Assembly: GCA_963799615.1 (NCBI GenBank)
Contig: CAWCXS010000003.1
Location: forward strand, 18,250-82,249
Direction of reading: 5' to 3'
DNA from: an uncultured Gaiellaceae bacterium
Lineage (GTDB): Bacteria; Actinomycetota; Thermoleophilia; Gaiellales; Gaiellaceae
DNA: 64,000 bases
Position 1 is the first letter of the stretch, and each line of letters starts with the position of its first letter. The position numbers were made by a program, and so were the translations under genes. The notes beneath the pieces were generated by a model. It saw only the letters and a program-made list of their open reading frames with translations. It searched no databases and was not told the DNA's origin. Positions 20,794 to 40,823 of the stretch are shown piece by piece.

Positions 20794-20795
20794 CG

Positions 20796-20854
20796 TGAGA
20801 ACGATTCTTGAAATCAAGATGGCCACGATAGCACGTCTTTGAGAACCGCTATCA
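20796..20854. promoter_or_regulatory. Two imperfect Fur/Zur-box-like 15-mers between divergent znuA and zur
   Basis: TGAGAACGATTCTTG (20796-20810) and TGAGAACCGCTATCA (20840-20854) share TGAGAAC and resemble the TGA-N9-TCA Fur-family palindrome. Confidence 0.45.
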
Positions 20855-20861
20855 TCAGGGG

Positions 20862-21311
20862 GTGACGACCACCACTGCCCCATGGACGGAGCACGCGCTC
20901 GACGGGCTCCGCGATGCAGGCTTACGCCGAGGGGGGGCGCGCCACGCCGTGGTTGCGCACCTCGGCCGGCAGCCGTGTTGCCTGTCCGCGCAAGAGATCT
21001 TCGACGGCATTCGCGCCGGCGGCGGACGAATCGGCATCGCGAGCGTCTACCGCGTGCTCGAGCAGCTCGCAGAGCTGCGGCTCGTGCAGCGCGTGGATAT
21101 CGGCGACGGAGTCGCCCGTTTCGAGCCCGCACATGCCGACGGGGATCATCACCATCACCTCGTCTGCGACGACTGCGGCAAGGTCGAGTCCTTCTCGGAC
21201 GTCCCGCTCGAGCGGGCACTCGAGCGCGTGGCGGGCACGCGCGGCTACGAGATGGACGCTCACGAGGTCGTATTGCACGGCGCCTGCGGCGACTGCCGTC
21301 CAGGCGCTTGA
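20862..21311 (+). CDS. zur: Fur-family regulator, probably Zur
   Basis: ASVYRVL helix, HHHHLVCDDCG, terminal CGDC; divergent from znuACB. Confidence 0.8.
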   Translation: MTTTTAPWTEHALDGLRDAGLRRGGARHAVVAHLGRQPCCLSAQEIFDGIRAGGGRIGIASVYRVLEQLAELRLVQRVDIGDGVARFEPAHADGDHHHHLVCDDCGKVESFSDVPLERALERVAGTRGYEMDAHEVVLHGACGDCRPGA

Positions 21312-24315: not shown

Positions 24316-24326
24316 CTAGCGTCTCC

Positions 24327-24353
24327 TATCGGTCGAAACGACGGACAACGTGA
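24327..24353 (-). promoter_or_regulatory. Sigma-28-like promoter of pilC
   Basis: TCAC-N16-ACCGATA. Confidence 0.65.
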
Positions 24354-24365
24354 ATGGCTCCGGCT

Positions 24366-25229
24366 CTACTTCGACGCGGTCGAGACATCGACAGTCGAGG
24401 AACCCGTCGTCGTCGGCGCGGTCTGACCGGACGTGTCGGCGGCCGAGGATCCGGCCGTGAAGCCTTCGACCGTCTCAGGCGTCGTACCGGTGTACACGAG
24501 CTTGATCTGGTAGCGGGCACCCGTCGCCGTGTTGACGAGCGTGATGCTCTTGTCCATCTTCAGCACGAGCAGCTTCCCGTTGGCGAACGCACCTCCGGCA
24601 ACGCCGATCTTCGCGGTCTTGGGCTTGATCTTGACCAGCTCGAACACGGGGTCGCTCGCCGGGAACGTGCCTTTCGCCTGCAGGTACTCGGCCGTGCCGT
24701 TGATCACGAGCGTGGCGTCGGTCAGCACTGGCTCCTCGGGCTTGGCGGGGGCTGCTCCTGCCGATCCGCCCGCTCCAGCCGACCCGGTGTCACCCGTTGC
24801 CGGCGTGGTCGAGGTGCCCGCGGGGGGCGTACCCGACCCGGTGTCGGGCGTGGTCGTCGTGTCCGAGGTGACCGGCGACGTGTCGGAGGCCGGCTTGTCG
24901 CCCACCTGCTGGACGAAGGGGTCCTTCGTCGCGAAGAGCGAGAACGAGATCAGCTTGCCCTGCGTCGGGTCGCGGCAGGGGTCGTCGACGAGGCTCCGGA
25001 GAGCACCGGCGCCGTTGGAGTCGCAGTGCGGCGTCCGCGTAGCAGGCGTGGCGTGGCGCCTGCCGTCGTGTCGACCGGCACCGCGGCAGGCGTGGAGCGA
25101 GCTGCCGACAGTCAGCTTGGGTACCTGGATCACGGCGATCACGACCAGCACGGCTCCGATGACGCCGAGCATGATCTTCTGCTTGCGCGCCTTGGCTGCC
25201 GCCGGGTCTATTTTCTGGGTCTTCGCCAT
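24366..25229 (-). CDS. Pilus alignment protein, PilP/GspC-like position (TM anchor, KDPF motif, beta-rich C-terminus)
   Basis: Last gene of the pilT-M/N-O run; TGATG coupling with pilO; one segment may be locally frameshifted. Confidence 0.6.
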   Translation of the reverse strand: MAKTQKIDPAAAKARKQKIMLGVIGAVLVVIAVIQVPKLTVGSSLHACRGAGRHDGRRHATPATRTPHCDSNGAGALRSLVDDPCRDPTQGKLISFSLFATKDPFVQQVGDKPASDTSPVTSDTTTTPDTGSGTPPAGTSTTPATGDTGSAGAGGSAGAAPAKPEEPVLTDATLVINGTAEYLQAKGTFPASDPVFELVKIKPKTAKIGVAGGAFANGKLLVLKMDKSITLVNTATGARYQIKLVYTGTTPETVEGFTAGSSAADTSGQTAPTTTGSSTVDVSTASK

Positions 25230-25891
25230 CAGGGAGTCGCTCCTGCTGCGACCGTCCCGCTGGAGGACGGAGTAGTGGACGGGGTCGTACCTGTGTCGGC
25301 AGCCGGGGGCGCGCCGCTGAAGGTGAAGGACTGAAGGGTGACGTCGCCTTGACGACCGGGAACTCCGCGTCGTCGGCCTTGGCGAGATCGACGCCCGTGA
25401 CCGAGTACAGCCGTCCACGGGCATCGAGCGTGCTCTTGCGAACGCGAACCAGCCCTCGGATGTCCCCGAGGAATCCCGAGACGCTGCTGAAGCGGCCTTG
25501 CAGCACGAGGGTCAGGGGCTGGGCGCTGTAGCCGGAACCCGCGACGGCCGAGGCAGGAGCGATCGAGGTGAACGTGAGCGAGTGCGTTCTTCGCGACGCG
25601 GTTGACGTCGAGAATCACCCCGGCCATGCCGACGCCGTCGGGCAACGCCTTCGTGAGCCGGTACGTGTCGCTCGCCCGAACCTTGACATCGGCCGAAGGA
25701 CGCGCGAGCGCCTGCTGCCGCGTGACGAGCTCGGTCTGCGCGGCCTCGACACTCTGCTTGAGGTCACCGACCTTGCTCCGCTGCGGAGACACGACCAGGA
25801 GCCAGGCAGCGGCGAGCACGAGGACGAGCCCGAACCCACCGACCGCGAGGCGAGCGCGGGTCGACGAAAGACGTTCGTTGAGCGCCTTCAT
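25229..25891 (-). CDS. pilO: Type IV pilus protein PilO-like; compensating frameshifts near 25570 and 25350
   Basis: TM segment, coiled coil, KALPDGVGMAGVILDV, then LQGRFSSVSGFLGDIR...LYSVTGVDL in an alternate frame. Confidence 0.7.
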   Translation of the reverse strand: MKALNERLSSTRARLAVGGFGLVLVLAAAWLLVVSPQRSKVGDLKQSVEAAQTELVTRQQALARPSADVKVRASDTYRLTKALPDGVGMAGVILDVNRVAKNALAHVHLDRSCLGRRGFRLQRPAPDPRAARPLQQRLGIPRGHPRAGSRSQEHARCPWTAVLGHGRRSRQGRRRGVPGRQGDVTLQSFTFSGAPPAADTGTTPSTTPSSSGTVAAGATP

Positions 25892-28625
25892 CGTGAACCT
25901 CCGTTGACCAGGTCGGCGAGGATGGTGAAGTGGACGGCGTTGCGGTCTCCGACCTTCTCGACGGAGCTCGACGACAGCGTCACGTTGGTGAGCGTCGGCA
26001 GCGTCGCGAGACGTGCGAGCAAGCGGGCGACATCCGGCTGCGTGTACGTGAAGCCGTCGATCGTCACTCCCTGCGAGCCGGTAGCGGCGGGAGCGGCTGC
26101 CGCGGCGGCAGGATCAGCCGAGGCGGGAACCGTGGCGCCGACATGCTGCAGCCAGACGTTCTTGGGGAGCGCGCGTGAGAGGTCGCGGAACACGTTCTCC
26201 CAGGCGAAGCGTCCTCCGAGCACGCTCGCAACTGCTGTTGCCCGCGCCTGCTGGTCGCTGCGCGAGATTCTCGTCGATCTGCGGCTTGGTCGGCAGCGGC
26301 AGCGCATTGATCGCCGTGCGCACAGCATCCAGCTGGGACTGCTGCTTGCCGGCGTCGCCGTGGGCCTGGACGAACAGAAGCCCGAGTGCTGCGACCGGGA
26401 CTGCGACGGCCACGGGGATGGCCACCTGAAGGAGGCTCGGTCGTCCGCGTGCCGGCTTCTTCGACTCGCCGGCGAGCAGGTCGACGCTGCGAACTGCGCC
26501 GTCGTCGATCGCGAGCCCGATCGGAACAGCCATCGAACCGATCGTCCCTTCGAGCGAGAGGTCGATGTCGGTGCGATTGACGACTCGCTGCAGGGGATCG
26601 CCGACGCGGACCGAGACGCCGATCATCTGGTGGAGCACGTCGGCGAGGCCCTCGAGATGTGAGGTGCCACCGGTGATGACGATCTCGCCGATGCCGAGCG
26701 ATTCGGGCTGAGTCTGGTAGAACTGGAGCGAGCTCACGAGTTCGCGCGCGAACGGCGTCAGTCGGAGCCGCATCGCGTCGAGAACCTTGGCGCGGGCGTT
26801 GTCGTCGAGGCCTTCGAACTGGCGACCCGGGCCCGACAGCGAGAGATGGCGGAGGATGGTCGCAGCCTCGGCAGGATGGACCTCGAGCTCCTGCACGATT
26901 GCGTCTTGCAGCGCCCCTCCGCCCCAGTCGAAGACGCGGGTGAACTCGCACACGCCGCCGCCGGCGACGAGAAGCGTCGAAGATTCGTGTCCCATCGCGA
27001 CGACAACGGTGGCGGTGTCGTCGACTGTGCGAACGGCGAACGGCCGAGGCTCGACGAAGGCACGCAGCAGGCCGAGCGCCTCGAGATCGATGCCTGCGAG
27101 CCTGAGTCCGGCCCGGTTCGCTACCTCCTGATACGGCTCGACCTGATCGCGCGGGGCCACGACGAGCAGCACGCGGCGGGACGGCACGCCAGACTCACCC
27201 GGGCGCTCCTCGAGCACGCGGTAGTCCAGCAGCGACTCGTGTACGGCAACGGGAAGGACTTCGTGTGCCTTGAAGCGAACGGCGTTGTCGAACTGGGACT
27301 GGTCGTCGATGCCGACGATGTCGAGCGTGCGGACACCGATGCGGTTGCTGGCGAGGCCGATCCGGACATCCTTCTTGGGCAGCTTCTCCTCGTCGAAGAA
27401 CGTCTTCAGGGCGTGGGCGAGCGCGTCGGCATCGCGTACCTCACCGTCGACGACGATGCCGTCGGCCAGTGGCCGCCGTGCGAGCTCGACGAGCTCGTTG
27501 CCGGCGTCGGTCTCCACGACGACCGCGGCGGCGAGCTGTGACGCACCGATCTTGAGACCGACGATCTTGCGGCCCTTCGCCGTACGTCCTGCGGACCGCT
27601 TCGGCGAGGCGCTCGCGCCCGCACTCTTGCGTCCCAGGGTACGCCTTGATTTCAGATCGACTACCGGCGGGATCTGTTCGAACGGCAGCGGAGGCTCCTC
27701 CGCCAGCGGGGCAGGACTCCCCGGTTCGTCGGCGGTTGGCCACTCGGCAACCGGATGCTCAGAAGCCGAAGCCGCAGTCTCGAGCTCGGGCAGCTCGGCG
27801 CTGAGCCCTTCGGCGACGCTCTCGTTGGCCACGATCGCATCGGCGGCAACGGCATCGTCGGCGACGTGCAACTGCTCCTCTACCGAGGGCCACGCGGCGG
27901 CCTGCTCATGTAGCACGGGAGCGAACATGTCGACGTCGAGCTGCGCGACGGTCGGGATCGCCGGCTCTTCAGGCACCTCCGGCTCTTCAGGCACCTCCGG
28001 CGCAACGATCTCTGCCGCAAGTACCGGAACATCTGCGTCCTCCGGCTCGGTGACGAGCTCGGAGGCGGCCGGTGCAGGCGCTGCCGCGCTTGCGGCGGAA
28101 GGTGATCTCGCGCTTGTAAAACGGCTGCTTCTCGTCCGACTCGGGCTCGAGGTCATGCTCCGCGCCGAGCTGCGGCTCCGCCTCGGCAGCGACCGGCTCT
28201 GACACGAGCTCGTCAACCTCGTGCTCGTAGTTGGGGACGGTGGGCTCCTCCCCTTCGACGCTCGACATGACGCTGTGGAGGTCCGGGTCAGCGGGCGTCT
28301 GCCAGGGCGACGGCTCGTCATGGCCGTCGCCGGCCGGCGGGGTGGCGCTCGCAACAGGGGCCGTGTGGCGCTTGAAGGAAAGCTCGGTGCGGTAGTGCGG
28401 CTCTCCACGCTCGTCCTCGGGCGGAGCGAAGCCGATGGGGCGACGGCGCGGCTCGGAGGAGAAGCCGCCGAGGCGGGTGCCGCCGAAGCCGATGGCAGGG
28501 CCACCGTGGCCGGGAACGATCGGGTCGCCGGTGCGCGACGGGTCGAAGCTGGACGATGCGTCGCCGGCGGCGAAGTCGCCGTCGTGCGAGCGGCCGGACA
28601 GGGCAGTGCGAGGGTTCCAGGTCAT
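25888..28625 (-). CDS. pilM: Apparent single protein: long acidic N-terminal extension, PilM actin-like domain and PilN domain; frameshifts near 28088 and 26280
   Basis: IVGLKIGASQL, VITGGTSHL, VPIGLA run in frame into VRSVDLL, a TM segment and a coiled coil, then FAWENVFRDLSRALPKNVWL. No stop or start codon at the M/N junction (~26500). Confidence 0.75.
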
Positions 28626-28632
28626 ATGGCGG

Positions 28633-29811
28633 CTAGCTCCCGGCCACTCGCAGCGCCGCGCCGAGTCCCGGCGTGGCGGCAGGTGCGCCGTCGTTGGTCA
28701 TGGCAGGAATCGGAATACCGGCTCGTTCGAGCGCGGACACGAGCGCCTCGGGCCGGCTGGAGCGCGCGATCGCCTCCGGCACCGTGACGAGTTGCTTCTG
28801 GACGAGCTCCGTCAGCGACTGCTCCATCGTCTGCATGCCGCGTCGGGTGCCGGTCTGCATGTACGAGTAGACCTGTTCGACCTTTCCCTGACGGATCAGG
28901 TTTCGGATCGCGTCATCGAGGAACAGGATCTCCAGCCCGACTGCCCGACCCTTTCCGTCGATTGTCGGTAGCAAGGTCTGCGTGACGATGCCCTGCAGCG
29001 AGTTCGCGAGCTGCATGCGCACCTGATCCTGCTGCGACGCCGGAAAGACGTCGATGATGCGGTCGATCGTGCTCGGCGCGCTCTGGGTGTGGAGCGTGGC
29101 AAAGACGAGGTGGCCGGTCTCGGCCGCGGTCAGCGCAGTCGCAATCGTCTCGAGGTCGCGCATCTCGCCGAGGAGGATCACGTCCGGGTCCTGCCGGAGC
29201 GCCCCTCGCAGAGCCTCGGCGAACCCGGTCGCGTCATGCCCGACCTCGCGCTGGTTGATGATGCAGCGCTTGTGGTTGTGGAGGAACTCGATCGGATCCT
29301 CGATCGTGATGATGTGGTCGGTGCGCGTCCGGTTGATCTCGTCGATGATCGACGCGAGCGTCGTCGACTTGCCCGAGCCGGTCGGGCCGGTGACGAGCAC
29401 GAGGCCGCGCGGCTTCGACGTCAGCTCATGGAGGCTCGCGGGCAGGCCGAGCTCCTCGAGCGAGCGGATGTCGGTGGGGATCGTGCGAAACGCGGCGGCC
29501 AGGCTCTCGCGCTGATAGAAGGCGTTGACGCGGAAGCGTGCAAGCCCGCGGATGCCGTAGGCGAAGTCCAGCTGGCGGTTCAGCTCGAGCAGCTTCTGCT
29601 GCTCGGTCGTGGTGATGCGATAGACCAGCTCGCGCACGAGATCGGGCGTCAGCACCGGAAACTCTGACAGCAGCTCGATGTGCCCGTGCAGGCGCACGGC
29701 GGGCAGCGAGCCGGCCGTCAGGTGCAGGTCGGAGGCACCCAGTGTGACGGTGCGCTCGAGTACCGCATCGACGCCAAGCGGGGCGGCGTTGGGCTGGTCG
29801 GAGAGCTCCAC
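28633..29811 (-). CDS. pilT: Type IV pilus retraction ATPase
   Basis: GPTGSGKSTT, TIEDPIE, LRQDPDVILLGEMRD, TLHT, AIRNLIRQ. GTG start at 29811. Confidence 0.95.
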   Translation of the reverse strand: MELSDQPNAAPLGVDAVLERTVTLGASDLHLTAGSLPAVRLHGHIELLSEFPVLTPDLVRELVYRITTTEQQKLLELNRQLDFAYGIRGLARFRVNAFYQRESLAAAFRTIPTDIRSLEELGLPASLHELTSKPRGLVLVTGPTGSGKSTTLASIIDEINRTRTDHIITIEDPIEFLHNHKRCIINQREVGHDATGFAEALRGALRQDPDVILLGEMRDLETIATALTAAETGHLVFATLHTQSAPSTIDRIIDVFPASQQDQVRMQLANSLQGIVTQTLLPTIDGKGRAVGLEILFLDDAIRNLIRQGKVEQVYSYMQTGTRRGMQTMEQSLTELVQKQLVTVPEAIARSSRPEALVSALERAGIPIPAMTNDGAPAATPGLGAALRVAGS

Positions 29812-29820
29812 GGGGGCATC

Positions 29821-29847
29821 TATCGGCAGCCACCCCGCGCACCTTGA
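29821..29847 (-). promoter_or_regulatory. Sigma-28-like promoter of pilT
   Basis: TCAA-N16-GCCGATA. Confidence 0.7.
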
Positions 29848-30050
29848 GCCTTGGCTCGGAGCAGGCCCCATGCGAGCTCCACACGCGCCGTGACGGAGCT
29901 CGTACACGTCGTGGATCGTGCGGTGTATCCCCAACAACGAGGGATGCAGCTCTCCCTCAATATCACTCTTCCGGGGAGTGCGAGCAATGCGTAGAGCGCC
30001 GATAACGCGGGAGTCGGTTTCATCCTCTATCGCTCCAGAAGGAGTCGCAC

Positions 30051-30473
30051 ATGTTTCTGAACAAGCTGCGGCAGCGGCTCGCACGGGAGGAGTCGGGCTT
30101 CACGCTCATCGAGCTCCTGATCGTGCTCGTGATCATCGGCATCCTGCTCGCGATCGCTGTCCCGTCCTACATCGGCTTCAAGGCTCGTGCTGCACAGACG
30201 GCCGCGCAGGCCAACGTCCGCTCCGCGATTCCCGCCGTCGAGGCGTTCTACGCCGACAACGAGGGTTCCGCCACGGACATCGATGCCAACGCTGCCACCT
30301 CTGGCTACCAGGGCATGACGCTCGCCCTGCTGCAGACCATCGACGCCGGCGTCAAGCTGTCGGTGATCAAGAGCCTCACGACCACCTCCTACTGCGTCGA
30401 CTACACAGGAGGCGGCAAGTCCGCCAGCAAGACCGCGGCCGCAGGCACGATCGTCAACACCGCCTGTCCGTAA
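30051..30473 (+). CDS. pilA: Type IVa major pilin, copy 1
   Basis: ESG|FTLIELL class III signal, C-terminal Cys pair, AGGAG RBS, upstream GCCGATAA at 29998-30005. Confidence 0.9.
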   Translation: MFLNKLRQRLAREESGFTLIELLIVLVIIGILLAIAVPSYIGFKARAAQTAAQANVRSAIPAVEAFYADNEGSATDIDANAATSGYQGMTLALLQTIDAGVKLSVIKSLTTTSYCVDYTGGGKSASKTAAAGTIVNTACP

Positions 30474-30500
30474 ACCAGCACCACCATCCACATGCAACCG

Positions 30501-30528
30501 AGAGGGGCGCGAGAGATCGCGCCCCTCT
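30501..30528 (+). terminator. Hairpin terminator after pilin 1
   Basis: AGAGGGGCGCGA-GAGA-TCGCGCCCCTCT, a perfect 12-bp stem. Confidence 0.7.
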
Positions 30529-30672
30529 TCGTTGCCGGCTCGCTCCGATCCCCAGATCCCCCGCAGTGAGTGATCGGGTCACCCACAAATCACTCATCCA
30601 GGGATTGCCGAACTCGGCGCGTCACCCGATGTCTCGAACATGTCTTTCTCTCACCGTCAAAGGATGTGTCCC

Positions 30673-31095
30673 ATGCGGCTCAACACACTGCGGCGCCGGC
30701 TCTCGGAGCAGGAGTCGGGCTTCACGCTGATCGAGCTCCTGATCGTGCTCGTCATCATCGGTGTTCTCGTCGGGGTCGCCGTCCCGTCCTACATCGGCTT
30801 CAAGGATCGTGCCGCGCAGACCGCCGCGCAGGCCAATGTCCGCTCCGCGATCCCGGCCGTCGAGGCGTTCTTCGGAGACAACAACGGCATTGCGACGGAC
30901 ATCGATGCCAACGCTGCCACCTCCGGCTACCAGGGCATGACGCTCGCCCTGCTGCAGGGCATCGACGCCGGCGTCAAGCTGTCGGTGATCAAGAGCCTCA
31001 CGACCACCTCCTATTGCGTCGACTACACGGGCGACGGCAAGTCCGCCAGCAAGACCGCGGCCGCAGGCGCGATCGTCAACACCACGTGTCCGTGA
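30673..31095 (+). CDS. pilA: Type IVa major pilin, copy 2
   Basis: ESG|FTLIELL; the mature protein differs from copy 1 at 13 of 124 positions (manual count). Confidence 0.9.
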   Translation: MRLNTLRRRLSEQESGFTLIELLIVLVIIGVLVGVAVPSYIGFKDRAAQTAAQANVRSAIPAVEAFFGDNNGIATDIDANAATSGYQGMTLALLQGIDAGVKLSVIKSLTTTSYCVDYTGDGKSASKTAAAGAIVNTTCP

Positions 31096-31113
31096 TTCGG
31101 CGCCGGATGGGCG

Positions 31114-31140
31114 TAAAGGTCTCGAGCCTTCCTGCCGATA
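31114..31140 (+). promoter_or_regulatory. Sigma-28-like promoter
   Basis: TAAA-N16-GCCGATA; GTG start 8 nt downstream. Confidence 0.75.
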
Positions 31141-31148
31141 GAGCCCCT

Positions 31149-31697
31149 GTGAATACCTTCGCCGCCTCCACGCGCCGGGTTCCACGCCCCGCCCTGATCG
31201 GGATCGTCGCACTCGTCGCCGCTTTCGCAGTTCTGATGCTCGTCCGCTCCGGCGTGTTCGGCGGCTCCTCCCCCGAATCCGTCCCCGTCGCAACTCCCGC
31301 GCATGCCGCGACCCCGGCGGCGCCTCAGCCCGCTCAGAGCAAGCCGGTAGTCAAGCCCAAGGTGGTGCTCCTCGCCGGCCTTCCCACGCCTGTCGCGCAC
31401 GCGCTGCGCTACTCCAAGGTCGTTGTCGTCTCTCTCTACGCAGGACCGGCGAAGAGCGATCGACCGGCCGTCGGGCAAGCACGCATAGGCGCCCGTAGCG
31501 CCGGTGCAGGCTTCGTCGCCATGAACGTGATCGACGACCGCAAGGCTGCGGCGCTGGTTCCGTTCGTCGGACCCGTCTCCGCTCCCGCGATGATCGTCGT
31601 GCGCCGGCCCGGAAAGATCGTCGCCCGCTTCGAGGGCTCGGTCGACAGCGCGGTCGTCGCACAGGCGGCGCACAACGCCGGCGCCCGCCGTCGTTGA
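31149..31697 (+). CDS. Membrane-anchored protein with thioredoxin-like topology, no CxxC
   Basis: TM segment, Pro/Ala linker, then VVVVSLY...FVAMNV...PAMIVVRRPGKIVARFEG. Confidence 0.65.
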   Translation: MNTFAASTRRVPRPALIGIVALVAAFAVLMLVRSGVFGGSSPESVPVATPAHAATPAAPQPAQSKPVVKPKVVLLAGLPTPVAHALRYSKVVVVSLYAGPAKSDRPAVGQARIGARSAGAGFVAMNVIDDRKAAALVPFVGPVSAPAMIVVRRPGKIVARFEGSVDSAVVAQAAHNAGARRR

Positions 31698-32065
31698 AGC
31701 TCCTCGGGAGACACGACGAGAAGGACAATGGGTCGTCGGACGCCGGCGGCCCTCGTTCGCTGTTCCGTCACGAGGTGCGGTATGACGGGCGAGCGGTCGT
31801 CGTGCTGGAAGCCGTGGCGACCGGCGACGGCGTCGTCGTCGAAACAGAAGTGTTCTCCGTCAACGGTGCGCCCGGCGCGCCGGCCATAACGCGCCCCTTT
31901 GCGTTCTCCACCTCCGAGCAGGCGCGGCGCTTCGTCGAAGACGCGCTCGTGAGCCTCGAGTACCTCGACTGCACGGTCTCGAACGAGTCTCCCACCGTGC
32001 GCTCGGTCCGGGAGGCGTCCCAGCCGGGGATGCCGTTCTTCGCAGACGGCCACGAGCGCGACTGA
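31694..32065 (+). CDS. Hypothetical protein
   Basis: TTG/TGA overlap with the upstream gene; plausible globular alpha/beta sequence. Confidence 0.65.
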   Translation: MKLLGRHDEKDNGSSDAGGPRSLFRHEVRYDGRAVVVLEAVATGDGVVVETEVFSVNGAPGAPAITRPFAFSTSEQARRFVEDALVSLEYLDCTVSNESPTVRSVREASQPGMPFFADGHERD

Positions 32066-32096
32066 CGCTCGGACATTGCCTGCGCGCCGTCGGGCG

Positions 32097-33881
32097 CTAG
32101 AAGGTGGCGACCACGCGCGCGAGCTCTTCGAGGCTGGTGAGCCCTGCCGCCGCCTTGGCGATGCCGTCGTCCCAGAGCGACCGCATCCCGGATCCCGCGG
32201 CCGCGCGGTCGATCTCGTCGCGCGGAGCGTTCTGTGCGGTGAGCGACTCCAGCTCGTCGTTCATCACGAGGAGCTGGAAGATGCCGATCCGCCCCTTGTA
32301 GCCGGTCCGGTTGCAACGCGGGCACCCCACCTTGCGGTAGAGCACCATGCCCTCGCGGGACGCTGCCATGTCGGGTGAGATCCGTGCAGCCACCAGCTCC
32401 TCCGACGTCGGGCCGTACATCTCGCAGCAGTTCGTGCAAAGCTTGCGCGCGAGCCGCTGAGCGAGCACCGCAGAGACGGCGGAGCCGGTGAGGAACGGCT
32501 CCACGCCCATCTCGTTGAGCCTCGTGATGGCGCCGGCGGCGTCGTTCGTGTGCAGCGTCGAAAAGACCATGTGACCGGTCAGCGCCGACTCGATCGCCAT
32601 CTTCGCCGTCTCGGTGTCGCGGATCTCGCCGACCATGATCACGTCGGGATCCGAGCGGAGGATCGACCGCAGGGCAAGCGCGAAGGTCATGTCCGCCTTG
32701 ACGTTGATCTGCACCTGGTTGATGCCCGTGAGGCGATACTCGACGGGATCCTCGACGGTGATGATGTTGATCTCCGGGCGATTGATCTCCGCCAGCGCAG
32801 CGTAGAGAGTCGTCGACTTTCCCGAGCCGGTCGGCCCGGTCACGAGCAGCGCGCCGGTCGGACGGCGAATGATCTCCGCCAGCCGGTCACGCATCGACTC
32901 GGAGAGCCCGAGCGACTCGAGCGTCGGGGTCTTGCGCGACTTGTCGATCAGGCGCATCACGACCTGCTCGCCTTCGACCGTCGGCAGCACGGCGACCCGG
33001 ATGTCGAGCATGCGCCCGACTGCGCGTGCGTTGAGCGCAATCCGGCCGTCCTGCGGCTTGCGCCGCTCCGCGATGTCCAGCTTCGCGAGCACCTTCAGGC
33101 GGGTCGTGACGCCGTTGGCCATCCGTTTGGGGATGCGCTGCACCTCGGTCAACACGCCGTCGACGCGAGTCCGCACAACGAGCGCATCCTCCTGCTGCTC
33201 GAAGTGGATGTCGCTCGCCCCGTCGGTCGCGGCCTGCATGATGACGGCGTTGACGAGGCGGACGAGTGGGGCATCGGAAACGCCGTCTTCGACCTCGAGA
33301 TCGTCCTCTTCTTCGACGACCTCGAAGTCGTCGAGCGCGGATTGCGACTCGAGCACCTCGGACTGGCGGGTGAGGCGGCTGAGCTCGGCGAGGATCTCGT
33401 CCCGGCTCGAGACGACGAGCTCGATCGGATACCGGCAGGCCAGCCGAAGCTCGTCGATCCCGTGGATGTTGCCCGGATCGGCGATGGCGACCCGGAGGCC
33501 ACCCTCGTCGCCGCGCGCAATCGGGATCGCGACGACACGCTGCAGGCTCTTCAGCGGTAGGAGGTCGGCGGCGTTCGGCGAGGGCCGATCCTCCGCCAGG
33601 TCGTGGTAGGGAAGCCCGAACTTCCGAGCCAGCGCGCGTGCGATGCCGTCGACCTGCGCCAGTCCCTCGTCGTGCAGAGCCTGCGCGAGCGTGCCTGCGC
33701 CGGCCCGGCCACGCGCGGCTGCGAGCCGGTCGCGGGGGACGAGTTGCGTCGCCTCGACGAGGTCGGCCACCATGTCGGCGATCGTCGCGAAGCCGCCGGC
33801 ACCATCTTCGCCGGGCGGAGCCGAGCCTCGGTCACCGAGGCTCGTGGAAGTGCGCAGCGGGCCTGTGGGCTCGAAATTCAC
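32097..33881 (-). CDS. pilB: Type IV pilus assembly ATPase
   Basis: ASDIHFE, DIAERRKPQDG, GPTGSGKSTT, LRSDPD, CTNC...CPRC, YKGR. Confidence 0.95.
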   Translation of the reverse strand: MNFEPTGPLRTSTSLGDRGSAPPGEDGAGGFATIADMVADLVEATQLVPRDRLAAARGRAGAGTLAQALHDEGLAQVDGIARALARKFGLPYHDLAEDRPSPNAADLLPLKSLQRVVAIPIARGDEGGLRVAIADPGNIHGIDELRLACRYPIELVVSSRDEILAELSRLTRQSEVLESQSALDDFEVVEEEDDLEVEDGVSDAPLVRLVNAVIMQAATDGASDIHFEQQEDALVVRTRVDGVLTEVQRIPKRMANGVTTRLKVLAKLDIAERRKPQDGRIALNARAVGRMLDIRVAVLPTVEGEQVVMRLIDKSRKTPTLESLGLSESMRDRLAEIIRRPTGALLVTGPTGSGKSTTLYAALAEINRPEINIITVEDPVEYRLTGINQVQINVKADMTFALALRSILRSDPDVIMVGEIRDTETAKMAIESALTGHMVFSTLHTNDAAGAITRLNEMGVEPFLTGSAVSAVLAQRLARKLCTNCCEMYGPTSEELVAARISPDMAASREGMVLYRKVGCPRCNRTGYKGRIGIFQLLVMNDELESLTAQNAPRDEIDRAAAGSGMRSLWDDGIAKAAAGLTSLEELARVVATF

Positions 33882-33905
33882 GAGTGTCGTCCTCTACTGC
33901 TCAGG

Positions 33906-33932
33906 TATCGGCACGTCGACGCCAGAGGTTGA
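33906..33932 (-). promoter_or_regulatory. Sigma-28-like promoter of pilB
   Basis: TCAA-N16-GCCGATA. Confidence 0.7.
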
Positions 33933-33971
33933 ACCCCGAAGCGCTCCCGCGTTGCGCCAACCGTCAGCGGA

Positions 33972-34721
33972 TCACGAGCCCAGGCCCGAGTACCAGTCGA
34001 TGATCTGGTCACCGAAGAAGAGCGCCACGAGAGCCCCGAGCGCGAGGAACGGCACGAGCGGAATCGCCATCTTGCGGGCCTTTGAGCCGTGGCGGGCGAG
34101 CAGCACGAGCGACGGGACCAGCGCGGCCACGAACCCGATCAGGAGCGCGGCACCGACGGTGCGCCCCAGCATCGCACCGAGCAGGAGGGTGAGCTTGACG
34201 TCTCCCATCCCGAGCCCTGCCGGATGGATGAGCGCGAACACGAGCATGAGGGTGGACGCGGCCAGCGCGGCCGCGACCCATTCCACAGACGGATCGATCG
34301 CCGTGTGTGCGAGCAGGCAGATGACGAAAGCGGGCATGACGATCCGGTTCGGCACCAGGCGATAGCGCAGGTCGGCAGCCGAGAGCGTGACGAGCGTGAC
34401 GCAGAAGAACGCCGCCAGGGCGGCGTACGCGGTCGCGCCGAAATCGAGCACGCAGACTACGACGAGGATTGCCGTGAGCACCTCGACCGCGGGATAGAGC
34501 GGCGAGATCGCTTCCTGACAGTGGCGGCAGCGCCCGTGCAGCAGGATGTACGAGAGCACCGGGACGTTGTCACGGGCAGCGATGGGCGCATCGCACGCGA
34601 GGCATGCAGAGCGCGGGTGGGAGATCGAGCGCCGTAGGGGCACGCGGGCCGCGACGACGTTGACGAAGCTGCCGAACGCCAGAGCGGGCGGGAGCGCAAG
34701 TGCTGCGAGTGCAAGGTTCAC
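33972..34721 (-). CDS. pilD: Prepilin peptidase/N-methyltransferase
   Basis: GSFVNVV, CLAC...CRHC, ADLRY..PN, GMGDVKL, PLVPFLALG. Confidence 0.95.
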   Translation of the reverse strand: MNLALAALALPPALAFGSFVNVVAARVPLRRSISHPRSACLACDAPIAARDNVPVLSYILLHGRCRHCQEAISPLYPAVEVLTAILVVVCVLDFGATAYAALAAFFCVTLVTLSAADLRYRLVPNRIVMPAFVICLLAHTAIDPSVEWVAAALAASTLMLVFALIHPAGLGMGDVKLTLLLGAMLGRTVGAALLIGFVAALVPSLVLLARHGSKARKMAIPLVPFLALGALVALFFGDQIIDWYSGLGS

Positions 34722-34729
34722 GGTCTGCA

Positions 34730-34756
34730 TATCGGCAGGAACGGGCTTGCGGATGA
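34730..34756 (-). promoter_or_regulatory. Sigma-28-like promoter of pilD
   Basis: TCAT-N16-GCCGATA; GTG start 8 nt downstream. Confidence 0.7.
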
Positions 34757-34777
34757 GTCCCGCAGGGCAGGCGTGCG

Positions 34778-36250
34778 CTAGGGGTTGACCTCGCGGAACA
34801 GGGCGACCGTGTACGCCTCGTCGAGCACGGGGAACCAAGGCGGCGGCAGATACTGGAGCGTCGTGTCGTAGTCGTAGTTGCGGACCTGGAACATGTCCAT
34901 GTAGGGGTGCTGGTTCGACGCGCTCGAGCCCGTGTGCGTGGCCGTGCCCTTGCAGCCGCAGCTGTTCCACGAGTGCCGGGCGCCGTTCTGCGCGATCACG
35001 GCGGCATGCCAGTCGAGATCGTACGGCCCCCACGAGGCGACGATGACGTCGTTCTTGCCGATCAGGCCGAGCACGTCGTCGCCGTCCAGGACATATGAGA
35101 TGTTGCCCGCGACGATCATGTCGTCGTTCGCGGCGATCGTGACTCTCCCGTTGACGACCGAGGCCTGCGTCGGCCACGACACGACCGCCGTGGTCTCGAC
35201 GTAGACGGCGCCGTTCGTGGGCACTGGATAGGTCGAGATCGACCCGGAACAGGTCGGCTGCGTGCCGCCCGGGTCGTTACCCCCGGTTCGCGTGCAGCCC
35301 TGAGCGGTGAAGGTGCCGTTCGCGAGCAGCACGAACTTCCAGATGGGGAAGCTGGCGTCGAAGTACTCGCCCCCAGTGATCGCCGCCGTCTTGAGGTCGT
35401 CGAGGGATGAGGTGAAGTTGCTGAAGTTGATCGGCGCCGGGAGCTGCGTGCGAATCGTCGTGCCGGGGTATTTCTGGGCTCCGTTCTGCAGGCTGGCAGG
35501 TCCGGTGATCGTCCCTTCGGCGTAGAGATTGGCCGTGGCGGTGCCCGCGTGATCGATGTCGTGGTTGTTGCCGCTCGAGTCTCGCCCGGCGTAGATCTTG
35601 CCGTTCGTCGTCGCAGTCGACCCGGCGCTGTAGTCGGAGTTCGTGATCATCTGGAAGTCGGACAGCAGCGACCAGTGCACCCATTCCTGCACGGCGCGCC
35701 ACTGGGTGGTGCTGGTGCCAGGGGCGCACGAGCTCGAGGTCGAGTACGCGGGGCTGCAGATCTTCCGGCCGGTGGAGAGAATCTGGATGCTCTCGTTCGT
35801 GGCGCTGGGCGGCGTGATCTGCAGGTTGTACTCGTAGCCGTTGGCGAGCTGGCACCAGTTGTCCTTGCCGCCGGCGATGCTCGGATCCCAGATCGCGGTA
35901 CCGGTCCAGTCGATGCCGAGGGCTCCCGTTTTCGTGGCGTTACAGGTGGTGCCGTTCGGCAGTGGGTCGACGTCCGCTCCCGCCGTCGGCCGGCGCGTCG
36001 ACTCTGCTGGATGCACGTGGTGGAGGTAGTACGTCTTGTCGTCGACGAGCTTGGACAGGTAATCGTCCAGGCCGGCCTCTGCCGCCTGGAAGGCCGCGTT
36101 GCTGGTTCGCGCGCTGTTGCTGCGCGTGGACTCGCTCGTGACCAGGTCGATCAGCGCGACCGAGACCATGCTGAGGAAGGCGACCAGGATGACGACGGTG
36201 AGCATCGCGACGCCGTCTTCCCGGCGGCCGATGCGGCGCAGAATCGACAT
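34778..36250 (-). CDS. PilX/GspK-like minor pilin with large C-terminal domain (~490 aa)
   Basis: EDG|VAMLT (no E5), AFQAAEAGL (PilX N-terminal signature), Cys-containing beta-rich C-terminus. Confidence 0.8.
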   Translation of the reverse strand: MSILRRIGRREDGVAMLTVVILVAFLSMVSVALIDLVTSESTRSNSARTSNAAFQAAEAGLDDYLSKLVDDKTYYLHHVHPAESTRRPTAGADVDPLPNGTTCNATKTGALGIDWTGTAIWDPSIAGGKDNWCQLANGYEYNLQITPPSATNESIQILSTGRKICSPAYSTSSSCAPGTSTTQWRAVQEWVHWSLLSDFQMITNSDYSAGSTATTNGKIYAGRDSSGNNHDIDHAGTATANLYAEGTITGPASLQNGAQKYPGTTIRTQLPAPINFSNFTSSLDDLKTAAITGGEYFDASFPIWKFVLLANGTFTAQGCTRTGGNDPGGTQPTCSGSISTYPVPTNGAVYVETTAVVSWPTQASVVNGRVTIAANDDMIVAGNISYVLDGDDVLGLIGKNDVIVASWGPYDLDWHAAVIAQNGARHSWNSCGCKGTATHTGSSASNQHPYMDMFQVRNYDYDTTLQYLPPPWFPVLDEAYTVALFREVNP

Positions 36251-36855
36251 CACGTCGCCCTCAGAGCGGCACTCGTCGTGTACGTGAACTGACGGCCGGG
36301 CGTTGTCCCGGTGGCGACCGAGAGCGTGGTCGTGACCGACCGCACGTTGGCAGGGGTCGTGGTCGCGTTGGGCGTCGGGCTCGCGCCGTCGAAATAGGTG
36401 AAGATCGTCGCGTTCTTGATCGAGTCGACGAGCGGGGCCCACGCGCTGAGCGCGGGGAACGTCCCCCAGGGCGGTCCTCCGGTCAGCGGGCTCGTCGCCG
36501 TCGCCCGCTCGAGCGTGCCTGCGTTGAGGCGATAGGCGATCAGCCGCAGGTGGTAGGGCTGCTGGTTGTCGAGCGAGTAGAACTGCAGCTGCGTCCCCGT
36601 CGACATCTTGATCACGGTCTGCGTCGTGTCGCCGTAGTACGACTGCCGGACCTCGCGTGCGATCCGGTCGGTGGCGGCTCGCACCTCGGTTTGCAGCAGG
36701 TTCTGTTCCTGGATCTCGCCGCTGTGGTGGATCGCGGAGCTGAAGATGAGCGAGAACGCACCGAGGATGAGGCCGAGGATCGAGATCACGACCAGCATCT
36801 CGCTGAGGGTGAAGCCGTCCTCCCGCTTCAGCCGGCTGAATGTGCGGCGCATCAT
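36250..36855 (-). CDS. PilW/GspJ-like minor pilin
   Basis: EDG|FTLSEML, IAREVRQ. Confidence 0.85.
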   Translation of the reverse strand: MMRRTFSRLKREDGFTLSEMLVVISILGLILGAFSLIFSSAIHHSGEIQEQNLLQTEVRAATDRIAREVRQSYYGDTTQTVIKMSTGTQLQFYSLDNQQPYHLRLIAYRLNAGTLERATATSPLTGGPPWGTFPALSAWAPLVDSIKNATIFTYFDGASPTPNATTTPANVRSVTTTLSVATGTTPGRQFTYTTSAALRAT

Positions 36856-39608
36856 GGCGTGTAGGGGCAGGTCAGGGAGGCGTTCATGTTGACGGTGACC
36901 GTGACTGTCGCGGCCGCGGCCGAGAGCGCGACGGTGCCCGTCCTATTGACGCCGGCAGTACAGGTTGCTCCCACCGACGCCTTGACCGTGTACGTGTAGC
37001 CGGTTGCTGCCGGCATCAGAACAGTGACCGTCGCCGGGCTGGTGTTGGTCGTGCTCTTCGGAGAGGGCGAGGTGGTGTACGCGGGTGCTGCGCCTGCGGT
37101 TCCGTTCGGGCCGCCTGTGACGCTGATCACGACGGACTTGTTCTGGTAAGCGGCGCCGGCCTGCTGCACGGTGATCGTGACCGTCTTCGTCGGGAGGATC
37201 GCGACGGTCGTCGCCGCACCACCGGCCGGAACAGCGATCGTGGAACTTCCGGAGCCCGTGTTCTTCGTCACGGTGACGGTGTAGTTCGTCGCCGACACCG
37301 GCACGGTCATCGCGACGATGCCCGTGATCGGGTCAGTCGTGGCTGTGTACGTCTGCGGGCTGTTCGGGCCGCCCGTGACGGTGACGGTGGCGCCGCCGGC
37401 AGCGAGTGTTGCCCACGTGGCAGTGACGGTCAAAGTCGCCACCGGGGTGAGCGCCACGGTCGTCGCCGCGCCTGCCAGCGGCACCGAGGCGACCGTCGAC
37501 GAGCCGGAGCCGGTGCCCTTCGTGACGGTGACGGTGTAGTTGTTGGACGTGGTCGTGGGGACGGTGATCAGGGCGATGCCGGTGACGGCGTCCGTCGTGC
37601 CCGTATACGTCGTGGGGCTGTCTGGACCGCCCGAGACGGTGACGGATGCGCTGAGCGCGGGCTTGCCCGCCCACGTGGCCGTCACGCTCAGGGTCGCCGT
37701 CGGCAGGTTGATGGTGCCGGTCGTCGACGCGACTACCGTCTGGCTCGTGAGCTGCGTCGTCTGGCCGTTCTTCGTCGCCTGGAAGGTGTAGTTCGCGCCC
37801 AGCGGCACCGAGGGGAACGTGACGACGCCGGAGGCGGTCGTCGTCAGCGACTGGTTGATCCCGTACGGCCCACCGGTGACCTGGACGGTGGCGCCGTTCA
37901 CGAGTGCGCCGAGCCACTTGACGGTCAGCTGGACGGTTCCGGCCGGCGGATTCGGGAGCGTCAGGTTGACCGTGTTCGAACCGGCGTTCACGGTCGTCCC
38001 AGTGTTGGTGGTAGTGCCCTTGGTCGCGGTGACGGTGTAGCCCGAGCCGGTGGGAACGTTGGTGAAGACGATCTGGCCGCTGCCGTTCGTCGAGCCGCTC
38101 GCATTGATCGTGAAGGGTCCGCCGGTGAGCGTGACCGTCGCGCCCGAGGCAGGGGACGCGAGCTGCGTGACGTTCACGGTGAGCGTCGCGGTCGGCGGGT
38201 CCGGAAGCGTGACCGTGACGTTGTTTGGACCGGCCACCGTCACTGCCGTTGTCGTGTTCGCAGTCGTGCTCCGTGTCGCCGCGACCGTGTAGCCCGTCCC
38301 GGCCGGGACGTTGCTGAACGTGACGTTGCCGCTCGCGTCGGTCGTCGGGTCCGGCGAGACGGTGATGTTGTTCGGGCCACCTGTGAGATGGACCGTCGCG
38401 TTGGGGGCGTTCGCACCGAGCTGCTGCACGTTGACCGTCAGCGAGCCGGACGGGCACGCGCCGAGCACGAGCGTCGCCGACGTCGTCGGATCCGCGGGAT
38501 AGTTGCTCCAGGTCGGGGCCGACAGCGTCGCGCAGAGCGGCGTCGTGGTGAGCGCCTTGATCGTGTAGGAGACGCCCGGGACGACCTTCTGGCCGGCCAC
38601 GGTCGTCACGGTGACGAGGCCGGTGTTCGTCGTGAACGTGCTCGTGTTGCCGTTGAGCGGCGTCGAGGAGGTCACCTGCACCGTCGCCGTACCCGTGTAG
38701 AGCACGCCGGGCGAGCTCTCGACACGAACGTTGATCGTGCCGGGCTTGAAGATCCGAATCTGCGACGTTGGAGCGGTCTGGCTCGGCGCGACCTGCAGAT
38801 GCGCAACAGGCGCCGGCGGCAGATCGACGGGAAGCGTCTCGTAGCCGCTCAGGCTGGCGGAAAGATCGTAGTACTCCGTTGGGCCGGTCGGCGTCATCGC
38901 CGCGAAGGAGGCCAGTCCGTTCGCGTCCGAGACGTCCGTGCGCATCGGATCGGGACCATTGTCGATCGTCACGACGGCGCCCTGCAGCGGCGAGTTGGGC
39001 TTGTAGTCCATCACCTGGACGTTCACGATCGACTTGTTGATGCCGCCGAACGGCGCACGTGAGACAGGCGCCACGTAAGTGACGCCCTGCGCAAGCCGCT
39101 TCCCGTCTCGGTCTCGCGTGACGGTGACGGTGACCTTCTTGTAGTTCGCCGCCGTTGCGTAACTCGTCGGAGTCGGGTCACCGACATACGTGATCTGGGT
39201 CGAGATGGTCGCCGCGAGCCCGTCATGCGCAAGCGCGACCGATCCATCGACATCCCCCGGCGGGTTACACGGCGTCGCCGTCGCGCAATCGATGCCGACG
39301 TCGGCGTACTGGAGATTTCGGATCGACTCGATCTCGTCGTTCACCGCCTGTTCCGACAGCGTCCGCTCGCGCGCCACGCTGTGCGCCGCGATCGACGAGG
39401 TGAGCACGCCGGCGAGCGCGGTCGCGACGATGATCATCAGCACCGCCGCCATGATTGTCTCGATCAGCGTGAAGGCCGACTCGGAGCGCGCACGGGCGAG
39501 CAGCCGAAGGCGGAAACGTGCAATCGGAGAGCTCCGGGCCGCTGATTCCACAGGCTCACCATCGGGAGGCATGCGGTGGCTGGAAACCCCCTTCTGGGGG
39601 AGGGCCAT
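36852..39608 (-). CDS. Giant PilV/GspI-like minor pilin with ~8 carboxypeptidase-regulatory-like beta-sandwich repeats
   Basis: ESA|FTLIETI, EQAVNDEIESIR, then ~80-aa repeats (ATV.LTGGP...TD.SG...VP....YTV.AT). Confidence 0.85.
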   Translation of the reverse strand: MALPQKGVSSHRMPPDGEPVESAARSSPIARFRLRLLARARSESAFTLIETIMAAVLMIIVATALAGVLTSSIAAHSVARERTLSEQAVNDEIESIRNLQYADVGIDCATATPCNPPGDVDGSVALAHDGLAATISTQITYVGDPTPTSYATAANYKKVTVTVTRDRDGKRLAQGVTYVAPVSRAPFGGINKSIVNVQVMDYKPNSPLQGAVVTIDNGPDPMRTDVSDANGLASFAAMTPTGPTEYYDLSASLSGYETLPVDLPPAPVAHLQVAPSQTAPTSQIRIFKPGTINVRVESSPGVLYTGTATVQVTSSTPLNGNTSTFTTNTGLVTVTTVAGQKVVPGVSYTIKALTTTPLCATLSAPTWSNYPADPTTSATLVLGACPSGSLTVNVQQLGANAPNATVHLTGGPNNITVSPDPTTDASGNVTFSNVPAGTGYTVAATRSTTANTTTAVTVAGPNNVTVTLPDPPTATLTVNVTQLASPASGATVTLTGGPFTINASGSTNGSGQIVFTNVPTGSGYTVTATKGTTTNTGTTVNAGSNTVNLTLPNPPAGTVQLTVKWLGALVNGATVQVTGGPYGINQSLTTTASGVVTFPSVPLGANYTFQATKNGQTTQLTSQTVVASTTGTINLPTATLSVTATWAGKPALSASVTVSGGPDSPTTYTGTTDAVTGIALITVPTTTSNNYTVTVTKGTGSGSSTVASVPLAGAATTVALTPVATLTVTATWATLAAGGATVTVTGGPNSPQTYTATTDPITGIVAMTVPVSATNYTVTVTKNTGSGSSTIAVPAGGAATTVAILPTKTVTITVQQAGAAYQNKSVVISVTGGPNGTAGAAPAYTTSPSPKSTTNTSPATVTVLMPAATGYTYTVKASVGATCTAGVNRTGTVALSAAAATVTVTVNMNASLTCPYTP

Positions 39609-39610
39609 CC

Positions 39611-40786
39611 CTAGCGCAACGCCGACGCAGCCGCCGGCGCGGTCAGATCGTCCGTCGTCGAAGGGCTGCCGGCCGGTGCGGCGGCGGCCGCCGCCTCACG
39701 TTCGTACGCCGCCTTGTCCTTCTCGGCCCGTTCGAGCGCGACCAGAAAGTCGTGCCGGTTCGTGGCGGCATTCGAGGCGACATCACGGTCCACCTCGCCG
39801 GCGATGACGAGCTCGATCAGGGACTGGGCGAACGTCCGCATGTCGTAGAACTCTCCGGCGGCGATCGCGTCGGTGATCTCGTCAGGCCGGTTTTCGCGAA
39901 TCAGGTCCTGGATGCGCGCGTTGCTCACCATCACCTCGACGGAGGGGACTCTGCCGCCGTCGACGCGCGGCAACAGGCGCTGGCTGATCACGCCGCGCAG
40001 CGTGCCCGCGAGGATCGAGCGGATCTGCTGCTGCTTCGCGGGCGGGAAGAACTCGATCATGCGTCCCACCGTCTCCGCCGCGTCGATCGTGTGCAGCGTC
40101 GAGAAGACGAGGTGGCCGGACTCGGCGGCCTGCAGTGCGGTGTGCGCGGTTTCGGTGTCGCGAAGCTCGCCGATCAGGATCACATCCGGGTCTTGACGCA
40201 GCACCCGCCGCAACGCCTGCTCGAAGCTCAGCGTGTCGAGACCCACCTCACGCTGGTTGACGATGCAGCCGCGATCCGGATGGAGGATCTCGATCGGGTC
40301 CTCGATCGTGACGATGTGCTGGCGCCGCGTCCGGTTGACGTGGTCGAGCATCGACGCGAGCGTGGTCGTCTTACCCGAGCCGGTGGCGCCGGTGACGAGG
40401 ACGAGCCCGCGGCGCTCCTCGGCAAGGCGGGTGACGCCCGTCGGGAGGCCGAGCATCGAGAAGTTGGGGATCTCGCTCGGGATGACGCGAAACGCGAACG
40501 AGATCGCTCCGCGCTGGCGAAAGCCGTTGACCCGGAAGCGGGGCAGCGTCGGGTGCGAGAACGCGATGTCGAGGTCTCCGGTCTCCTCGAAGACGTCGCG
40601 CCGCTTGGGCGAGATCTGCGTGACGGCGTCGAGGACTGCCTCGAGGTCAGGCTCGGTGAGAGCGGGTGCGTCCTGCAGCTGCTCGAGGTCGCCGTCGAGC
40701 CGGACGACCGGCGGCTGACCGAGCTTGAGGTGAACGTCGCTGGCACCGCTGTCGACGGCGCGCTTGAGCATGGTGACGAGATCCAT
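39611..40786 (-). CDS. Second PilT/PilU-family ATPase
   Basis: GATGSGKTTT, TIEDPIE, LRQDPDVILIGELRD, STLHT, RIQDLIRE. Confidence 0.92.
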   Translation of the reverse strand: MDLVTMLKRAVDSGASDVHLKLGQPPVVRLDGDLEQLQDAPALTEPDLEAVLDAVTQISPKRRDVFEETGDLDIAFSHPTLPRFRVNGFRQRGAISFAFRVIPSEIPNFSMLGLPTGVTRLAEERRGLVLVTGATGSGKTTTLASMLDHVNRTRRQHIVTIEDPIEILHPDRGCIVNQREVGLDTLSFEQALRRVLRQDPDVILIGELRDTETAHTALQAAESGHLVFSTLHTIDAAETVGRMIEFFPPAKQQQIRSILAGTLRGVISQRLLPRVDGGRVPSVEVMVSNARIQDLIRENRPDEITDAIAAGEFYDMRTFAQSLIELVIAGEVDRDVASNAATNRHDFLVALERAEKDKAAYEREAAAAAAPAGSPSTTDDLTAPAAASALR

Positions 40787-40796
40787 ATGCCGGGTT

Positions 40797-40823
40797 CATC
40801 GGCACCGCGATGTGCGACCTTTA
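40797..40823 (-). promoter_or_regulatory. Sigma-28-like promoter of the PilT2-minor pilin operon
   Basis: TAAA-N16-GCCGATG. Confidence 0.75.

Follow-up and report, generated by a model that had tools for sequence, protein, structure and literature searches.

Candidate WhiG-type promoters in the type IV pilus locus of an uncultured Gaiellaceae bacterium

The pilus locus and its six bipartite sites

A complete type IV pilus locus was identified, by gene calls and Pfam, in a 64-kb stretch of DNA from an uncultured Gaiellaceae bacterium, and six short bipartite sites of sigma-28 promoter type lie within it, before pilC, pilT, orf31149, pilB, pilD and pilT2. The whole stretch, called the window here, is C3:18250-82249 of a 3.57-Mb assembly of 15 contigs with 68.5% G+C and 93% completeness; plain coordinates below are those of the window, and coordinates elsewhere in the genome carry a contig label. 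Genes were called with our own crude gene caller, and domain identities were taken from Pfam. The platform protein gene pilC (23098-24315, minus strand; T2SSF, 206 bits) is followed in coordinate order by a minus-strand block at 24366-29811, a probable operon of pilT (28633-29811), orf27987, a pilM-like gene (26114-27994), a pilO/T2SSM-like gene (25229-25891) and orf24366, with matches to T2SSE, PilM_2 and, weakly, T2SSM. On the plus strand are two major-pilin paralogues (30051-30473 and 30673-31095; N_methyl) and the translationally coupled pair orf31149 and orf31694 (31149-32065), which encode proteins of 182 and 123 amino acids (aa) without a Pfam hit and have orthologues in 52-55 related loci. 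The remaining genes are on the minus strand. These are pilB for the extension ATPase (32097-33881; T2SSE, 436 bits, and MshEN, 55 bits), pilD for the prepilin peptidase (33972-34721, the gene call being 33972-34730; A24_N_bact and Peptidase_A24), and a block at 34778-40786 made up of pilT2 (39611-40786), a gene for an 899-aa protein (36852-39551), a minor pilin gene (36250-36855) and orf34778 (34778-36253). The genes of this last block, with matches to T2SSE, N_methyl and CarboxypepD_reg, are adjacent or overlapping and probably form one operon.

An earlier note on this DNA had described six sites of the form T(A/C)A(A/C/T)-N16-(G/A)CCGAT(A/G), i.e., TMAH-N16-RCCGATR, with an exact 16-nucleotide (nt) spacer. 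A search with this motif recovered all six, against 0.35 ± 0.61 expected from 100 dinucleotide-preserving shuffles of the window, none of which contained as many as six matches. All six are intergenic and inside the pilus locus, five on the minus strand and one on the plus strand, and each is co-oriented with the first gene of one pil gene block. In the whole genome the same loose motif has 37 matches, of which 6 are within the 16.5-kb pilus locus. Scanning the window with N15, N17 and N18 spacers gave no extra site before any gene start. The sites have the parts of a sigma-28 promoter, namely a TAAA-like -35 box, a GCCGATAA-like -10 box and a spacer of 15-16 nt, in six exact N16 matches.

At five of the six sites the start codon comes 8-11 nt after the end of the -10 box, which agrees with the earlier claim that several genes start 8-10 nt downstream. 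The predicted pilT2 promoter (TAAAG-N-GCCGATG, 40797-40823, minus strand) is 10 nt before the ATG, the predicted pilT promoter (CTCAAGG-N-TGCCGATA, 29821-29847, minus strand) is 9 nt before GTG 29811, and the site before orf31149 (TAAAGG-N-GCCGATA, 31114-31140, plus strand) is 8 nt before GTG 31149. At pilD (TCAT-N16-GCCGATA, 34730-34756, minus strand) the gap is 8 nt if GTG 34721, in the reading frame of an ATG that overlaps the -10 box, is the start; it is from the 8-nt geometry that we infer this GTG to be the pilD start. At pilB (TCAAC-N-GCCGATA, 33906-33932, minus strand) the gap is 24 nt, which gives a short leader that has a GAGG-like ribosome site. The pilC site (TCAC-N16-ACCGATA, 24327-24353, minus strand) is 11 nt before the ATG. 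Here AGGAG adjoins the -10 box (24320-24332), as it also does at orf31149 in many relatives (GCCGATAGGAG); the box-AGGAG bases could have two roles, that of a promoter from which a leaderless mRNA starts and, in read-through mRNAs, that of a ribosome-binding site.

Conservation, spacing and genome-wide distribution

To follow the sites through related organisms, up to 62 related Gaiellales loci were collected by way of PilB, the closest having 74-87% PilB identity and coming from Gaiellaceae, Gaiella, Gaiellales or Thermoleophilia records, and the sequence 5' of the aligned start was inspected for each orthologue. The full motif precedes pilT in 39/40 relatives (consensus CTCAAG...TGCCGATAG...CGTGGA) and orf31149 in 29/30, with GTG at 8-9 nt in most of the latter. 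It was also found in 36 of the 47 orthologous regions upstream of pilT2 (consensus TAAAG...TGCCGATG), in 28 of 54 upstream of pilD, and before pilC in 11/32 relatives. For pilB the full motif is present in 25/47 relatives and the -10 box in 33/47; in many relatives without the pilB motif, pilB abuts pilD. Five internal or neighbouring genes taken as controls had no motif in any relative inspected (orf31694, 0/46; orf34778, 0/29; minor pilin, 0/33; an FAD oxidoreductase, 0/42; orf27987, 0/20), and two other operon-internal genes gave 1/24 (899-aa protein) and 0/9 (orf24366). Within the pilT block, orf27987 is the internal gene whose number of orthologues permits a judgement. The consensus obtained from the relatives is T(C/A)AAG-N15-TGCCGAT(A/G). 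Columns with a conservation of at least 80% are confined to CTCAAG or TAAAG, to TGCCGAT(A/G) and to the start codon, and none of the 15 spacer bases between the boxes is conserved. As judged from the aligned upstream DNA, this pattern is the standard phylogenetic footprint of a bipartite promoter.

The -10 box was then considered genome-wide. There are 254 copies of GCCGATA in the genome, 27 of which lie within 40 nt 5' of a gene start on the same strand, versus 2 in the opposite orientation; the motif is thus not randomly placed, and the enrichment at gene starts proposed as a check in the earlier note is there. In a count that made no use of gene calls, 23 of the 254 copies have an ATG or GTG at exactly 8 nt that opens an ORF (open reading frame) of at least 60 aa. 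The other distances from 0 to 20 nt have 0-7 copies each, and the reverse complement at 8 nt has 3. At these 23 sites the position 20 nt 5' of the box is T in 14, and is followed by C/A, A, A/G and G. Leaderless mRNAs transcribed from a single class of promoter would show just such a fixed 8-nt spacing, which argues that mRNAs here may be of this kind; the evidence bearing on leaderless transcription is this geometry, i.e., 8-11 nt at five of the six sites and the sharp genome-wide peak at 8 nt.

A promoter matrix trained on the pil promoters of the relatives only was scanned over this genome and gave about 30 sites, nearly all of them intergenic; 19 of the 20 best hits are in intergenic DNA, which makes up approximately 15% of the genome. 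Among the hits are five of the six pil promoters, that of pilT with a score of 27.2, joint highest in the genome, and pilC falls below the cut-off.

The two major pilin genes have a different upstream layout. The earlier note had given pilin 1 a perfect -10 box without a -35 box, and this was confirmed: GCCGATAA lies at 29998-30005 on the plus strand, 45 nt before the gene, with no T(A/C)A at N15-17. Among 44 relatives the -10 box is present before pilin 1 in 29 and a -35 box in only 3. Upstream of both pilin genes (29964-30030 and 30591-30640) there is instead CAC(T/C)C-N4-5-GGG, about 20 nt 5' of a CCGAT(A/G) box, in a span of 41 nt. At pilin 1 the repeat before the box is inverted, CACTC-N5-GGGAGTG, and the GTCGGTT that follows the box is conserved in relatives, as is the layout as a whole, in which the -35 box is missing and a ribosome-binding site and a leader of approximately 45 nt are present. 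The element may be an activator or operator site, and the arrangement suggests that an activator site may replace the -35 box at the pilin genes. An Rfam search of 22-42 kb at E ≤ 0.1 gave nothing, with no riboswitch at the pilin leader, and a scan of 29.8-32.2 kb for sigma-70 promoters and terminators also gave nothing. A perfect 10-bp GC-rich hairpin is found 3' of pilin 1 at 30502-30527 (GAGGGGCGCG-agagat-CGCGCCCCTC). It has no T-run and fails the T-tail rule for an intrinsic terminator; it probably separates the two pilin transcripts.

WhiG, RsiG and the predicted regulon

Membership in the sigma-28 family was judged with TIGR02479, for which the curated cut-off is 189.6 bits. One gene of the genome scores above it, with 288.6 bits (C1, approximately 20162-20950, minus strand). 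The product matches the Streptomyces venezuelae sigma chain of 6PFJ with 282 bits, regions 2 and 4 being nearly identical, and also matches Rubrobacter radiotolerans WhiG (7LQ4_A) and FliA structures; we refer to the gene as whiG. The earlier note had asked for fliA, whiG and flgM homologues, and of these WhiG was found and FlgM is absent. Indeed, FlhA (FHIPEP), flagellin (Flagellin_N) and FlgM all lacked a match in this 93%-complete genome, so that a flagellar class III regulon was not found. The whiG gene is tail-to-tail with a gene for a 687-aa GGDEF protein (C1:18086-20950), and TATTCT stands 7 nt before the whiG GTG, a housekeeping-type leaderless layout.

The anti-sigma factor RsiG was sought with Pfam PF22802 and with the cyclic di-GMP (c-di-GMP) motif E-x3-S-x2-R-x3-(Q/H)-x3-D. 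A 166-aa protein (C2:56716-57216) has two PF22802 matches, of 60.6 and 57.7 bits, and carries two E-x3-S-x2-R-x3-H-x3-D motifs in one chain. Among known structures it matches RsiG of S. venezuelae (6PFJ_T) and the RsiG chains of 7LQ2, 7LQ3 and 7LQ4. In the same orientation, rsiG is followed (C2:56716-58357) by genes that encode a zinc-ribbon/FHA protein and a MerR-type (FtsR-like) regulator. No sign of autoregulation was seen, as neither whiG nor rsiG has the WhiG motif upstream.

WhiG was found in 17 of 18 related genomes of good quality. In one genus of the order both WhiG and PilT are missing, in 3/3 genomes, a co-occurrence that is only weakly informative in view of a WhiG-positive relative that also lacks a close PilT. 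Two relatives that have pilT and in which WhiG was not detected still carry the motif; their genomes are about 85% complete, and the missing WhiG is best put down to this incompleteness.

Outside the pilus locus, the matrix places sites before nine genes whose products have GGDEF, EAL or HD-GYP domains in Pfam; 7 of the 21 GGDEF genes in the genome are among these nine. A sigma factor gene of group 1/2 type (C2:63073-63963), a pair of genes for a response regulator and a histidine kinase, a gene for a CAP-domain protein and a few small ORFs also have a hit upstream.

One more hit, scoring 23.0, precedes a small RsiG-like gene at C2:297123-297401 (minus strand). This gene is one of seven paralogues, all outside the window, that encode small RsiG-like helical hairpins of 79-95 aa. 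The others are C2:48374-48658 and C5:69995-70282 on the minus strand, and C5:5920-6183, C5:70390-70660, C5:70722-70961 and C10:84612-84878 on the plus strand. Most of the paralogues have two intact E-x3-(S/T)-x2-R-x3-(H/Q)-x3-D motifs with a short 'APLD' loop between them, and two of the seven pass the PF22802 cut-off; searches of the PDB and NCBIfam gave no significant match for these small proteins. A GCCGATA box lies 8-9 nt before the start of four of the seven, two of which also have a -35 box; besides that at C2:297123-297401, three RsiG-like genes have no matrix hit but do have the -10 box, at a leaderless spacing. Relatives have only 0-2 detectable small RsiG-like copies each, and the box is also present in five related genomes.

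A proposed c-di-GMP-gated WhiG switch, its alternatives and known systems

Taken together, these results lead us to read the six sites as promoters used by WhiG within a c-di-GMP-gated RsiG switch of a non-flagellated genome, a reading to which we give a probability of roughly 0.8. Homology and the identical consensus suggest that WhiG holoenzyme would read the -35 box T(C/A)AAG and the -10 box tGCCGAT(A/G), 16 nt apart. Transcription would start about 7-8 nt past the -10 box, which at five of the six sites coincides with the start codon or is no more than a few bases away from it, and the mRNAs would be leaderless or nearly so. With separate pilin promoters added, the six promoters would account for all 16 genes of the locus, arranged in about eight transcription units. 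From homology with Rubrobacter and Streptomyces, twin-motif RsiG loaded with c-di-GMP would hold WhiG, and the pilus genes would be on when c-di-GMP is low. The nine GGDEF/EAL/HD-GYP genes and several of the small RsiG-like genes, if driven by WhiG, would feed back on the switch. Sigma-28 control, as put forward in the earlier note, is supported by the whiG gene, by the enrichment of the box at gene starts and by conservation in dozens of genomes. The note had also proposed a developmental programme, and nothing points to one. A c-di-GMP switch is the better reading because RsiG is encoded and many of the predicted targets are c-di-GMP enzymes.

Several points weigh against the WhiG switch. 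The choice of WhiG over another factor, the positions of the starts and the gating by c-di-GMP are all read from sequence, and all gene starts come from the crude in-house gene caller. The pilC site is the weakest of the six (ACCGATA, TCAC) and is kept in only 11/32 relatives. Both major pilin genes are without a -35 box, and the structural subunit may need another factor. Further, WhiG occurs without a close PilT in one relative of the same order, so that the link between the two is not strict.

The possibility that the boxes are promoters read by another sigma factor of this genome was weighed against these data. Seven other genes of the sigma-70 family score 104-121 bits on TIGR02479, shorter partial matches, probably of extracytoplasmic function (ECF) type, come in addition, and one of the seven (C2:63073-63963) itself lies behind such a box. 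Only the C1 gene, however, passes the FliA/WhiG cut-off. Group 1, group 2 and SigF/SigB-type factors read different -10 sequences, and the motif is the published WhiG2 consensus base for base. We consider it improbable that one of the other factors uses these boxes. An operator for a DNA-binding regulator, overlying ordinary promoters, would account for the data with a slightly smaller probability still: conserved sequence is all that the data comprise, and binding of a dimeric regulator might likewise leave two conserved blocks, but here the blocks are asymmetric. The strict 16-nt spacing, the fixed distance of 8-9 nt to the start codon genome-wide and the identity with the sigma-28 consensus fit a promoter, and a scan of the region of the pilins and orf31149 detected no hexamers of sigma-70 type. 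That the six hits reflect chance, or the base composition of a 68% G+C genome, is very nearly out of the question. The loose motif does match coding DNA as well, and spacers of 12, 15 and 18 nt give 23-35 hits in the genome, as expected of codon periodicity, but six matches were reached in 0/100 shuffles, all six sites are intergenic and correctly oriented, and in dozens of species the sites, though not the spacer sequences, have been kept at the orthologous positions.

Such use of WhiG and RsiG for pilus genes is already known in kind (PMC8325347; 10.64898/2026.01.14.699351), and the Gaiellales lineage is new. In R. radiotolerans, a search for TAAA and GCCGATAA together with mapped start sites located three WhiG promoters within the cluster of type IV pilus genes and another five upstream of diguanylate cyclase (DGC) and phosphodiesterase (PDE) genes (PMC8325347), and similar predictions, with two pilus-cluster units, were made for Rubrobacter xylanophilus (PMC8325347, Schumacher et al. 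2021). Like Rubrobacter, the present organism is a non-flagellated basal actinobacterium with WhiG, RsiG and flagellar-type promoters in the pilus cluster and before DGC/PDE genes. Unlike Rubrobacter, it belongs to the Thermoleophilia/Gaiellales and has six cluster promoters rather than two or three, and its RsiG is a single chain with twin motifs, whereas Rubrobacter RsiG is a single-motif homodimer. Single-motif RsiGs have been reported for Rubrobacteria and for three other Thermoleophilia (PMC8325347); an RsiG of this homodimeric kind was not found here, and most of the small paralogues also have two motifs. The -35 box here is mostly TCAAG, and the geometry of the spacing to the start codon is systematically leaderless-like, versus the mapped starts of Rubrobacter; the word 'leaderless' is absent from the text of both PMC8325347 and 10.64898/2026.01.14.699351.

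The motif here is the WhiG2 consensus of Denis et al. 2026 (bioRxiv 10.64898/2026.01.14.699351), T(A/C)AA-N16-GCCGATAA, for which the recurrent predicted targets are type IV pilus clusters, c-di-GMP enzymes and regulators. Pilus targets were predicted there in Cellulomonadaceae, Cryptosporangiaceae, Sanguibacteraceae, Rubrobacteraceae and Jonesiaceae, and neither 'Gaiell' nor 'Thermoleophil' occurs in the text (10.64898/2026.01.14.699351). FliA-family factors also transcribe zoospore pilus and flagellar genes in Actinoplanes missouriensis, according to the account of Kimura 2019 and Hashiguchi 2020 in PMC8325347, and this is likewise a case of sigma-28-family factors acting on type IV pilus genes in an actinobacterium. 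As far as that secondary account goes, Actinoplanes is flagellated, develops sporangia, encodes several FliA paralogues and lacks RsiG, whereas the present genome has one WhiG, an RsiG and no FlhA, flagellin or FlgM. With the class III flagellar promoters of the FliA/SigD and FlgM systems the sites share the consensus and the sigma family, and in both the sigma factor appears to drive its own inhibitor family; unlike those systems, there is no FlhA, flagellin or FlgM here, and the anti-sigma factor is the unrelated, c-di-GMP-dependent RsiG. In Synechocystis, a bacterium without flagella, the group 3 sigma factor SigF, a relative of FliA, controls pilA1. The promoter sequence there is another one, and the control concerns only the pilin gene; in the present locus it is the machinery genes, not the pilin genes, that have the full motif.

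These findings extend WhiG/RsiG/c-di-GMP control of pili from Rubrobacter to the Gaiellales, an abundant and almost uncultured soil lineage. That the wiring is kept in dozens of species supports pilus control as an ancient, perhaps ancestral, task of WhiG in non-flagellated actinobacteria, and the leaderless geometry and RsiG-like targets supply concrete promoters and genes for testing. More tentatively, the WhiG regulon of Gaiellales might be almost wholly leaderless, and the small RsiG-like hairpins might be extra anti-sigma factors or c-di-GMP sponges, giving a FliA/FlgM-like negative feedback with a twin-motif anti-sigma factor in a compact form not described before. The pilins might then have a promoter class of their own, in which a WhiG-type -10 box is combined with an activator site in place of the -35 box. 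We hold this combination of proposals to be possible rather than likely.

Two further sites outside the window were noted. The matrix hit that shares the highest score (27.2) with pilT, C11:141804-141834 on the minus strand, precedes an uncalled 31-codon ORF, MRHVPRWLKILGLASLIAEAGAAAAVFWHSR, whose ATG is 8 nt after the box; its product looks like a small membrane peptide. Finally, an orphan PilB/GspE-type ATPase gene (559 aa, C2:114222-115901), outside any pilus cluster, is preceded by a matrix hit, a full WhiG-type promoter sequence with GTG at 8 nt, and the N-terminus of its product, RLGEILIDLG...Q, resembles by eye the c-di-GMP-binding MshEN motif.

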